Shown here piece by piece: positions 15,611 through 16,654 of a DNA stretch of 64,000 bases (positions are counted from its first letter, which is position 1; each line of letters begins with the position of its first letter). Location of the stretch: positions 3,232 to 67,231 of the forward strand of contig JAUXGN010000011.1 of NCBI GenBank assembly GCA_030622115.1. Direction: 5' to 3'. The stretch is from Candidatus Eiseniibacteriota bacterium (GTDB taxonomy: Bacteria; Joyebacterota; Joyebacteria; Joyebacterales; Joyebacteraceae). Both the position numbers and the translations under genes were made by a program. A model generated the notes under the pieces. It did no database searches, had not been told where the DNA came from, and saw only the letters and a list, made by a program, of their open reading frames with translations.

Positions 15611-16654
15611 ATGAAGCGCATGCTCATCATTGTTCTAGCGCTGCTCGTCATTTCGAGTGTAGCGTTTGCTGGGAAGATGCTTCCCGACGCCAAGTTCTCG
15701 ACCGAGCCGTACGCCCCCATGAGCTCCCGTGACTACACGGAAGGCTTCGAGGGTGCATTCCCGCCCGTTGGCTGGACGCAGGGCATCACCAATCCCACCG
15801 AGACCTGGCATCAGTACTCGCCGGGCGGCGAGGGCACGTATTGCGCGAACTGCTTCTACGATCCCGCGCTCGTTCCTCAGCTCGAGACGCTGTGCTTCTC
15901 GCACACGTTCGTTGTTGATGAACTCCACCTAAGCTTCCTCGCCATGTCCAGCTACTACTGGGGCGTGGACCCGTACGCGAACTACGACATCTACGTGACG
16001 GTCGACGGCGGCGTTGTGTGGAGTTTCCGCGCCGACGGCACCACCAATAACTACGTCTGGGACCCCTACGACGTAGACCTCGCCGCGTTCGGCTTCATCG
16101 CTGGTCAGACCGTCGATATCTGCCTCGTGTACGAGGGTTCTGACGGTGCGCAGGCTGGCTTCGACGCCATCAAGATCGGCGAAGCGTACGTTCCGCCGCC
16201 GCCGCCCGATGGCGACGTTTGTGAGACGGCGCTCCCGATTCCGAGCAATGAGTTCAGCATCGACGGCTCGAACGTCGGCTTCGCCAGCGACTACCCGCTC
16301 GCGTCCGGCAGCTGCACGGGCTACAGCGCCACCGGTCTGGATGTCGTCTACTACACGATCCTCGAGGTCGGCGACGAGTTCACGGTCACGATGGATACGG
16401 TCGGCGACTGGGACGACTCGATCTACCTGATCACCGACTGCACCGACCCGTTCGGCAGCTGCGTCGCAGGCGCCGACGAGTACCCCGACATGTCGACCTT
16501 CACCTACACCGCCACCGCCGACGGCACGTACTACCTGATCGTTAGCGCCTACGCCTCCGGCACCGGTGACTACACCATCTTCGGCTTCAACGGCGGCGGC
16601 ACGACGCCCGTCGAGGAGTCAAGCTGGGGCAGCATCAAGGCACTGTACAGGTAA
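15611..16654 (+). CDS. Secreted protein with SWGxIKxxY tail (N-terminal FPPxGW-type module, then a pre-peptidase-C-terminal-like beta-sandwich)
   Basis: ORF 15416..16654 trimmed to the ATG at 15611. Signal peptide MKRMLIIVLALLVISSVAFA. EGFEGAFPPVGWTQG motif. C-terminal domain GDVCETALPI...YYLIVSAYASGTGDYTI. Tail TTPVEESSWGSIKALYR. Confidence 0.7.
   Translation: MKRMLIIVLALLVISSVAFAGKMLPDAKFSTEPYAPMSSRDYTEGFEGAFPPVGWTQGITNPTETWHQYSPGGEGTYCANCFYDPALVPQLETLCFSHTFVVDELHLSFLAMSSYYWGVDPYANYDIYVTVDGGVVWSFRADGTTNNYVWDPYDVDLAAFGFIAGQTVDICLVYEGSDGAQAGFDAIKIGEAYVPPPPPDGDVCETALPIPSNEFSIDGSNVGFASDYPLASGSCTGYSATGLDVVYYTILEVGDEFTVTMDTVGDWDDSIYLITDCTDPFGSCVAGADEYPDMSTFTYTATADGTYYLIVSAYASGTGDYTIFGFNGGGTTPVEESSWGSIKALYR

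Follow-up and report, generated by a model that had tools for sequence, protein, structure and literature searches.

In a 64,000-nucleotide stretch of DNA from a Candidatus Eiseniibacteriota bacterium (contig JAUXGN010000011.1; the whole stretch is called the window below), three genes encode unrelated exported proteins that end in the same short C-terminal tail, centred on the motif W-G-x-I-K. This tail is a genuine feature, numerous, lineage-specific and maintained by selection, and neither current models nor the searchable literature cover it. We propose that it acts as a modular, lineage-specific sorting or anchoring tag for Sec-exported proteins of Eisenbacteria and allied phyla of the FCB group, a proposal that we credit with an even chance of being right.

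The three genes are referred to here as A (959..1699, minus strand), B (15611..16654, plus strand) and C (60348..60905, plus strand). Translation of their open reading frames (ORFs) gives the tails TSPVEEMTWGAIKAMYAE (A; 962..1015, minus strand), TTPVEESSWGSIKALYR (B; 16601..16651, plus strand, residues 331-347) and PSPTEQSTWGKIKSLFGI (C; 60849..60902, plus strand), so that the coordinates and endings in the preliminary description of the window proved exact. Their common ending is P-[VT]-E-x-[ST]-[ST]-W-G-x-I-K-[AS]-[LM]-[YF]-(R). Tail B has the canonical YR-COOH form of the general ending [YF][RK]-COOH. The other two belong to a minority with less common endings: tail A, with two extra residues and without the terminal Arg, closes on YAE, and tail C closes on FGI, an FG[IF] variant. 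A six-frame translation of the window (64 kb) contains W-G-x-[ILV]-K at just three places, each 9-10 residues ahead of a stop. The DNA pattern common to the three genes, TGGGGNNNNATCAAG, is likewise found three times, whereas 100 dinucleotide shuffles give an expectation of 0.04 and not one of them reached three.

Each of the three N-termini reads as a type-I (Sec) signal peptide, which bears out a second point of the preliminary description. These are MKKMVLLLVVATICVAHVPAGA/EE in A (1634..1699, minus strand), MKRMLIIVLALLVISSVAFA/GK in B (15611..15670, plus strand) and MRICAVIAVIALLVVPVAA/QR in C (60348..60404, plus strand), with cleavage sites inferred by eye from the sequence rather than by a predictor. 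For B, the start and the hydrophobic region are kept in homologs, and AlphaFold2 (AF2) predicts a helix over residues 2-18. The mature parts had been described as unrelated, and this also holds: without their tails, the three proteins find one another by BLASTP with no match better than E=0.3.

The 347-residue product of gene B consists of two binding modules followed by the tail. Its AF2 model, with a mean predicted local distance difference test (pLDDT) score of 87, shows two beta-sandwich binding modules. The N-terminal one is a jelly-roll like those of Cleaved_Adhesin, MAM and CBM domains, i.e. choice-of-anchor-J-like, and the C-terminal one resembles PPC and collagen-binding beta-sandwiches, the PPC profile match being weak. 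Foldseek relates the protein to the collagen-binding domains of ColG, the cleaved-adhesin domain K1 of Kgp (TMt 0.63) and CBM61 (TMt 0.69). Its 66 homologs come from metagenome-assembled genomes (MAGs) of Candidatus Eisenbacteria and Krumholzibacteria, and one of them, 40% identical, is annotated as a "choice-of-anchor J domain-containing protein". The start at 15611 is backed by about 50 homologs with the same MKR beginning. The public product for this gene (P0225) has 412 aa and starts at 15416, 65 codons upstream of the conserved MKR, and the 347-aa form matches no record exactly.

Gene A encodes a secreted protein of 246 aa that is LamG- or 3-keto-disaccharide-hydrolase-like (DUF1080-type), with a weak match to PF06439 (E=3e-4). 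Its sole other homolog, P0221, is 54% identical and ends in ...AVEETSWAAIKVLYRQ. The small secreted protein encoded by C (185 aa) has no Pfam or NCBIfam domain. An ortholog of 49% identity, at L059:3695-4249, ends in ...TEDSTWGKIKAFFGF. A longer ORF in antisense (60246-60914, minus strand, 222 aa) overlaps gene C. The gene index contains no exact match to C, which is probably uncalled in the public gene set. As with B and C, gene callers may systematically miscall or omit small proteins with this tail.

The distribution of the tail was followed in a collection with one genome per GTDB species, using a GC-rich codon pattern for WGxIKx[LMIVF]YR-stop. At least 118 loci match, where about 9 would be expected by chance for the whole collection according to our own arithmetic, and 116 of those listed have a genuine ORF ending in the tail. 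By record title, the matches listed belong to Eisenbacteria/Eiseniibacteriota (38 loci), Krumholzibacteriota (5), "Gemmatimonadota" (4), Latescibacterota (2) and, with one locus each, Fibrobacteraceae, Gammaproteobacteria, Limnocylindria and Isosphaeraceae; a further 65 come from MAGs titled only "bacterium". The Isosphaeraceae locus (L033) and, among these 65, a rumen MAG locus (L058) are chance matches without a terminal tail ORF. An AT-rich version of the pattern matches 19 loci, with real tails in Krumholzibacteriia, Latescibacterota, one family of Cloacimonadota and other MAGs, while its matches in Bacteroidota, Treponema and Firmicutes are short chance ORFs. No genuine tail from Bacteroidota was found among the GC-rich matches listed or the matches of the AT-rich scan. 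The same peptide is thus written with AT-rich as well as GC-rich codons, which implies selection on the peptide and not on the DNA.

The tail was also turned into a profile of 18 positions. An exhaustive search of 1.84 billion cluster representatives with this profile returned 406 proteins at E<=1e-3, and the motif is C-terminal in 139 of the 150 best matches. False positives include leucine-rich repeats of plant NLR proteins (P0074, P0087), a eukaryotic repeat protein (P0092) and P0076. The last is a tape-measure-like protein of 925 aa, matched internally, that carries six near-identical GWSALKALYRWSPLG repeats between two degenerate copies; this repeat is probably unrelated and convergent.

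The loci allow a comparison of tail positions that does not depend on the search pattern. Codon-specific patterns bias residue counts at the positions they fix, so claims free of this bias are drawn from the orthologs of B, from the residues upstream of W, which the pattern left free, and from "unforced" matches, i.e. tail matches in the loci other than those fixed by the pattern. Within the 769 kb of the 118 related loci listed, 42 unforced matches are C-terminal and 2 are internal, one of the latter in a fused tandem paralog and the other in an apparent read-through. Signal-peptide-like N-termini, scored with a crude hydrophobicity test, occur in 79% of the tail ORFs as against 22% of the remaining ORFs (Fisher p=5e-24); of 68 complete-looking representatives, 56 have one. 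Both enrichments that the preliminary description had named as checks, at C-termini and on signal-peptide proteins, are therefore present.

The carriers are diverse. When 138 tail proteins are stripped of signal peptide and tail, they fall into 68 BLAST families. Every carrier with a name in its source record is either "hypothetical" or labelled by its passenger domain. Pfam assigns the passengers to right-handed beta-helix and Chlamydia-PMP families (Beta_helix/Chlam_PMP), pullulanase X25 with CBM20, lamin-tail (LTD), Big_5, NHL, CHRD, InhA-MAM, Cleaved_Adhesin, thioester domain (TED) and pectate lyase. NCBIfam adds choice-of-anchor types J, X, W, E and V, a ScyF-like "PEP-CTERM protein" and M36 regions called "rhombosortase-dependent" or "myxosortase-dependent". 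These NCBIfam families, as the names and definitions of their models convey, are found with alternative C-terminal anchoring signals. To judge from these domain assignments, the passengers are typical surface or extracellular modules.

The same kinds of passenger also occur with a known signal. Proteins with the tail and proteins with a type IX secretion system (T9SS) C-terminal domain (CTD) share passenger families within the loci, and both signals are never found on one protein. In more distant PPC relatives of B, a T9SS CTD stands in place of the tail, of the FlgD_ig type in P0053 and of the Por_Secre_tail type in P0069. In the same loci, tail proteins have a median length of 235 aa, compared with 693 aa for ORFs with a T9SS CTD. 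The types of passenger, their sharing with T9SS-CTD proteins and the difference in size together imply that the tail fills the slot of a sorting or anchoring signal.

The tail can be divided into a linker and a terminal segment. Upstream of W, the linker follows the consensus P(-8)-[TSV]-[PA]-[VT]-E(-4)-x-[ST]-[ST]. It is flexible, acidic and rich in Ser and Thr, and often comes after (C-x2-4). In 82 of 163 tails a Cys, frequently part of a CxxC (e.g. GCPNCESPVQ..., DCPACASPVE...), stands 9-12 residues ahead of W, a frequency far above the roughly 8% expected from an assumed typical Cys content of 1-2%. The terminal segment comprises nine residues, W-G-x-[IVL]-K-[ASG]-[LM]-[YF]-[RK], and usually is the end of the protein. 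Among the 42 unforced endings, 20 are YR, 7 are FR and 1 is FK, the other 14 being variants with 0-4 extra residues, the class to which A and C belong. Of the pattern-selected tails 155 of 163 end in Arg, a count that follows the pattern itself, which fixed Arg and stop.

Conservation within orthologs is residue-specific. Nearly all homologs of B, even at an identity of about 30%, close on [ST]-[WF]-[GSD]-x-[ILV]-K-x-x-[YF]-[RK]-COOH. Aromatic residues are kept at the W and Y positions and small ones at the G and +4 positions, and the P-V-E upstream is retained too. The Lys is the sole invariant column in an alignment of 48 tails and the sole invariant tail residue in the full alignment of the B family. 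Such conservation argues for a defined binding partner. In the AF2 model of B, the fold reaches to about residue 330, and a disordered stretch (334-338, pLDDT<50) and a low-confidence helix (339-346, pLDDT ~50) come after it, so that, by the model, the tail lies outside the passenger fold.

Known families do not account for this segment. Pfam-A and NCBIfam 20.0 yielded no match to the tail on A, B and C at E<=1, no tail family on 124 tail proteins, although a tail model would rank top there, and no match on isolated or concatenated tail peptides at E<=10. The T9SS models TIGR04183, PF18962 and PF13860 were silent on the same three sets, and so were the NCBIfam models of sorting signals. A profile search of the PDB with the tail found nothing similar. 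In the searchable full-text literature, which leaves subscription journals uncovered, no description of the tail was found under the motif, under literal strings or under the phyla combined with sorting signals, and the existing papers on "choice-of-anchor" proteins contain none on a WGxIK tail. The authors of the preliminary description could name no family for it either, and had set it apart from the transmembrane (TM) anchors of PEP-CTERM and LPXTG proteins, rightly, since it has no TM segment. Their proposal of a candidate uncharacterised sorting tag is supported by the enrichments and by the lack of a model, and its role in sorting or attachment itself is presumed.

For the destination of the tail, its partner and its retention as opposed to cleavage, we infer the following course of events. 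The signal peptide would be removed first, and the terminal segment would then dock non-covalently to a component of the cell envelope, which may be a dedicated receptor protein or the surface of the membrane or lipopolysaccharide (LPS). Small binding or enzymatic modules (median ~235 aa) that are otherwise soluble would be tethered by this docking. In this way the tail would take the slot that T9SS CTD, PEP-CTERM, MYXO-CTERM and LPXTG signals occupy on homologous passengers elsewhere. Avidity would increase with additional copies, whether these are arranged in tandem or replace a lipid anchor at the mature N-terminus.

Such extra copies exist in an NTF2-like exported family found by the profile search, in which the motif occurs at other places as well as at the C-terminus. 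Members that are lipoproteins, with ...GC[GSD]DD after the signal peptide, have 2-5 tandem tails at the C-terminus (P0070, P0075, P0077, P0115, P0121, P0123). In the two-module members P0078, P0088 and P0094, one tail copy follows each module. The non-lipoproteins P0071, P0073, P0079 and P0118 have one copy right behind the signal-peptide cleavage site and one at the C-terminus. The N-terminal copy takes the place of the lipid-anchor Cys of the paralogs, and this architecture is present in several independent assemblies. As the sequences of this family show, the motif is a self-contained module, for which a free C-terminus is not strictly necessary. The tandem and N-terminal copies favour a non-covalent anchor or docking peptide over a cleaved export signal.

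Some further features of the family are worth recording. One locus, L030:1724-6975, contains seven tandem NTF2-like paralogs. The C-G-D-D-D start of the lipoprotein members recalls the lipoprotein export signal of Bacteroidota. The start of the gene for the four-tail lipoprotein P0070 is overlapped by 16 nt by a 456-aa ORF (L139:8646-10016, plus strand), whose translation reads as an HNH endonuclease (DUF222-type); no Pfam match is on record for it.

Several observations weigh against a docking tag. A single protein family supplies essentially all of the tandem and N-terminal copies. The neighbourhoods of the tail genes revealed no receptor, protease or transpeptidase. Passengers such as CBM20/X25, pectate lyase and adhesin-type beta-helices suggest a place beyond the outer membrane, and a mere anchor leaves their transit unexplained. 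The strong C-terminal bias and the preference for [YF][RK]-COOH resemble a terminal recognition signal more than a generic docking peptide. Finally, the hydrophobic moment of the segment is indifferent to helix or strand, and the helix in B has a pLDDT of only ~50.

A broader form of the idea is that the tail is the address label of an unrecognised sorting pathway, either a new class of T9SS signal with a lineage-specific shuttle or a new system of outer-membrane export or attachment. We hold this as a tentative possibility. If it were true, the pathway would handle on the order of at least 100 proteins per genome in Eisenbacteria, Krumholzibacteriota, Latescibacterota and their relatives. This estimate is projected from the window, where 3 of ~55 genes and ~3 of 11 exported proteins have the tail.

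The main rival explanation, which we regard as doubtful, is that the tail is an outer-membrane secretion signal read by a lineage-specific T9SS adaptor or shuttle, or by an undescribed translocon, and probably cleaved near P-V-E. Its extreme C-terminal position and the extracellular-type passengers are in keeping with this, as is the fact that T9SS CTDs coexist with the tail in these genomes and passenger families, where the two signals are mutually exclusive. The ends look alike too: local T9SS CTDs finish in ...[RK]K[MV][VL]LL[RK], and the tail in ...IKxLY[RK]. Near the C-terminus of type A CTDs lies a single Lys that is almost invariant and matters for function (PMC10994853), and the sole invariant residue of the tail is a Lys four from the end. 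According to one report (PMC12618676), different CTD classes are served by specialised shuttle proteins. The difficulty lies in the fold. Type A CTDs must fold into a seven-stranded beta-sandwich (PMC10994853), even "short" T9SS CTDs retain motifs B, D (GxY) and E (PMC11969387), and the sandwich architecture is reported as essential in another source (PMC11285876). The tail, by comparison, has 17 residues, is predicted to be helical and matches no T9SS model. It was not found in genuine form among the Bacteroidota, where T9SS is ubiquitous, in the matches listed for the GC-rich pattern or in the AT-rich scan, and internal, tandem or N-terminal copies would be atypical of a secretion signal.

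An unlikely explanation is that the tail needs no machinery and lies in the plane of the membrane as a short amphipathic helix, by analogy with the membrane-targeting sequence (MTS) of MinD or the C-terminus of PBP5. WGxIKxxY is predicted by AF2 to be helical in B and in both copies in P0071, three contexts with pLDDT values of ~50, ~40 and 80-88. Drawn as a helical wheel, the segment has W, I, L/M and Y/F together on one side, flanked by K and R, with G and a small residue at i and i+4. The tandem copies and the replacement of the lipid anchor in the NTF2-like family would suit such an anchor, and the end of tail C, GKIKSLFGI, may resemble the C-terminus of B. subtilis MinD. Amphipathicity, however, does not call for an invariant K, a W/F, a G or small residue and an upstream P-V-E over at least 68 families and several phyla. 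The segment has only ~4 hydrophobic residues, its hydrophobic moment is no higher in helix than in strand geometry, and existing lipoproteins carry the tail too.

Covalent attachment through the invariant Lys is very unlikely. The attachment could be to peptidoglycan, by analogy with Braun's lipoprotein, in which L,D-transpeptidases join the C-terminal ...KYRK to the peptidoglycan by a cross-link, or through an isopeptide bond to another envelope polymer. It would explain why Lys is the sole invariant residue, set in a basic and aromatic context near the C-terminus (K-x-[LM]-[YF]-[RK]). The terminal residue, for which only the unforced set is informative, is mostly Arg and not Lys, peptidoglycan binding would be unexpected for extracellular-type passengers, and no L,D-transpeptidase is linked to the tail genes.

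The genes around the tail genes give little indication of a reader. No exosortase, sortase, rhombosortase or myxosortase was seen within their 8-kb neighbourhoods. The commonest neighbours are proteins with a T9SS type A (FlgD_ig) CTD, and other recurrent ones are ECF sigma factors (6 loci), zf-HC2 anti-sigma factors (3 loci), sigma-54 activators (3 loci) and housekeeping genes. Examples of such regulators are at L065:2130-3338, L018:1822-2433 and L057:4482-7520, and in the window a sigma-54 activator (58650-60038, minus strand) adjoins gene C. To go by their annotation, these regulators hint at a regulated expression of the tail proteins. Elsewhere in the window, an exported protein of 524 aa (45651-47225, minus strand) combines an alpha/beta-hydrolase of the PHA-depolymerase/esterase-like kind (NF050058, E=3e-12) with a PDZ domain (PF13180, 28.5 bits). 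Because PDZ domains bind C-terminal peptides, this hydrolase is a candidate, if a long-shot one, for the reader of the tail.

The ECF sigma and anti-sigma neighbours and the PDZ hydrolase also lend something to the idea that the tail is a C-terminal degron, or an envelope-stress or regulatory signal read by a PDZ protease, in analogy to the recognition of YxF ends by DegS. This is more improbable still than covalent attachment: such a signal would be implausible on ~5% of genes and in dozens of families, the tandem and N-terminal copies do not fit it, and the known ligands of PDZ proteases lack the basic terminal residue of the tail. That the tail is non-functional, whether a chance likeness, the end of one shared domain or a translated DNA or RNA element at gene 3' ends, has nothing found in its favour and is hardly credible in view of its excess over the shuffles, the 68 unrelated families of its carriers, its place outside the modelled fold of B, its different codon sets in GC-rich and AT-rich lineages and its retention in orthologs at 30-50% identity. 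Two specific forms were rejected on these same grounds, a conserved DNA element because the peptide is kept with different codons, and a remnant of a shared domain because the 68 families are unrelated and the tail lies beyond the fold.

Earlier C-terminal sorting signals show why the tail matters. LPXTG, PEP-CTERM and the T9SS CTD each led to dedicated envelope machinery being discovered, and predictions of surface and secreted proteomes make routine use of them. We know of no cultured host of the tail system. The tail marks a large and so far unannotated fraction of the exported proteome in several uncultured phyla that are environmentally widespread in soil, sediment and activated sludge. 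A model of it would be an immediate gain for annotation, as 406+ clusters at 50% identity pass a stringent threshold, and could be used in phylogenetic profiling for the receptor or machinery. If the 17 residues indeed form an autonomous anchoring or export peptide, it would be among the smallest such tags in diderms and a possible fusion tag. In Cloacimonadota (L125, L127, L128, L133, L134), the tail is found on one family of ~250 aa alone, which ends in ...QTRSWGRIKSIYR. This single-family occurrence may offer a test of whether lineage-specific machinery is needed.

Two other groups of genes in the window can be mentioned for completeness. A cluster on the minus strand (31795-36969) encodes an MMPL/RND-like transporter (31795-34128), a DUF1302 outer-membrane protein (34146-35447) and a LolA_like/DUF1329 protein (35444-36238), and next to them, at 36292-36969, a probable TetR-type regulator, as read from its sequence. 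Two adjacent large ORFs, 11174-12931 and 12959-14623, both on the minus strand, are paralogs ending in ...MYMPEYEDYV and ...MYYPEYEDYI, and the second is a malic enzyme (PF00390, PF03949).

Among known systems, the T9SS type A CTD is one of the closest. The neighbour of gene A at 1765-3723 carries such a FlgD_ig-type CTD (1768..2016, minus strand), which is not part of the tail system. It matches TIGR04183 with 26.3 bits (cut-off 23, residues 570-647) and PF13860 with 35.4 bits (cut-off 27), so that the genome uses the classical signal of ~80 aa as well as the tail. The preliminary description had rightly distinguished the two. Like the type A CTD, the tail is found at the extreme C-terminus of Sec-exported FCB-group proteins, and its genes are scattered rather than in an operon with machinery; the two also share genomes and passenger families. 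A Lys is conserved close to a basic C-terminal residue in both, which is a resemblance only. Unlike the CTD, a folded seven-stranded beta-sandwich of 45-100 aa, the tail consists of 17 residues, a disordered linker and a predicted helix. It can be in tandem or at the mature N-terminus, its carriers are much smaller, and among the matches listed genuine tails were found outside Bacteroidota only.

The signals of the PEP-CTERM/exosortase, LPXTG/sortase, GlyGly-CTERM/rhombosortase and MYXO-CTERM systems are similar in another respect. They too are short C-terminal tags on many unrelated exported proteins of one lineage. Their order of signature (P-V-E in the tail), more hydrophobic stretch and basic end is the same, and choice-of-anchor passengers are shared. 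MYXO-CTERM has a Cys close upstream, as the tail often does. These signals differ by a hydrophobic TM helix of 15-20 residues with a basic cluster, whereas the tail has no TM helix and only 9 residues after P-V-E, including the central invariant Lys.

Two further likenesses were rejected. The tail is not the beta-signal of an outer-membrane beta-barrel, as tails end in Arg or Lys, the outer-membrane proteins of the window end in Phe, and B is predicted as a soluble two-module beta-sandwich. Of the ~11 exported proteins in the window, 3 have the tail, 3 are outer-membrane barrels ending in Phe, 1 is a T9SS cargo and 4 are others; the TonB-dependent receptors and the DUF1302 outer-membrane protein end in ...TTF, ...IDF and ...YSF. 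Nor is the tail a site of the Braun-lipoprotein type, since its last residue is mostly Arg in the unforced endings (YR 20, FR 7 and FK 1 of 42) and the conserved Lys is internal.

The membrane-targeting sequence of MinD and the C-termini of PBP5 and PBP6 are comparable in length and character, with a terminal segment of ~9 residues that has an aromatic and aliphatic face, flanking Lys/Arg and a predicted helix. There, too, extra copies would add avidity, and the segment can replace a lipid anchor. By this analogy, amphipathic anchoring of the MinD/PBP5 type is a plausible mode of action for the tail. Those anchors are conserved in character and not in sequence, however, whereas the tail is residue-specific, has the P-V-E linker and is found on exported proteins. 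SLH, LysM, GW and choline-binding repeats, lastly, resemble the tail in being modular, at either end, in 1-5 copies, on diverse passengers and non-covalent in their binding, which for the tail is presumed. They are folded domains of 20-80 aa with known ligands, whereas the tail is a linear peptide.

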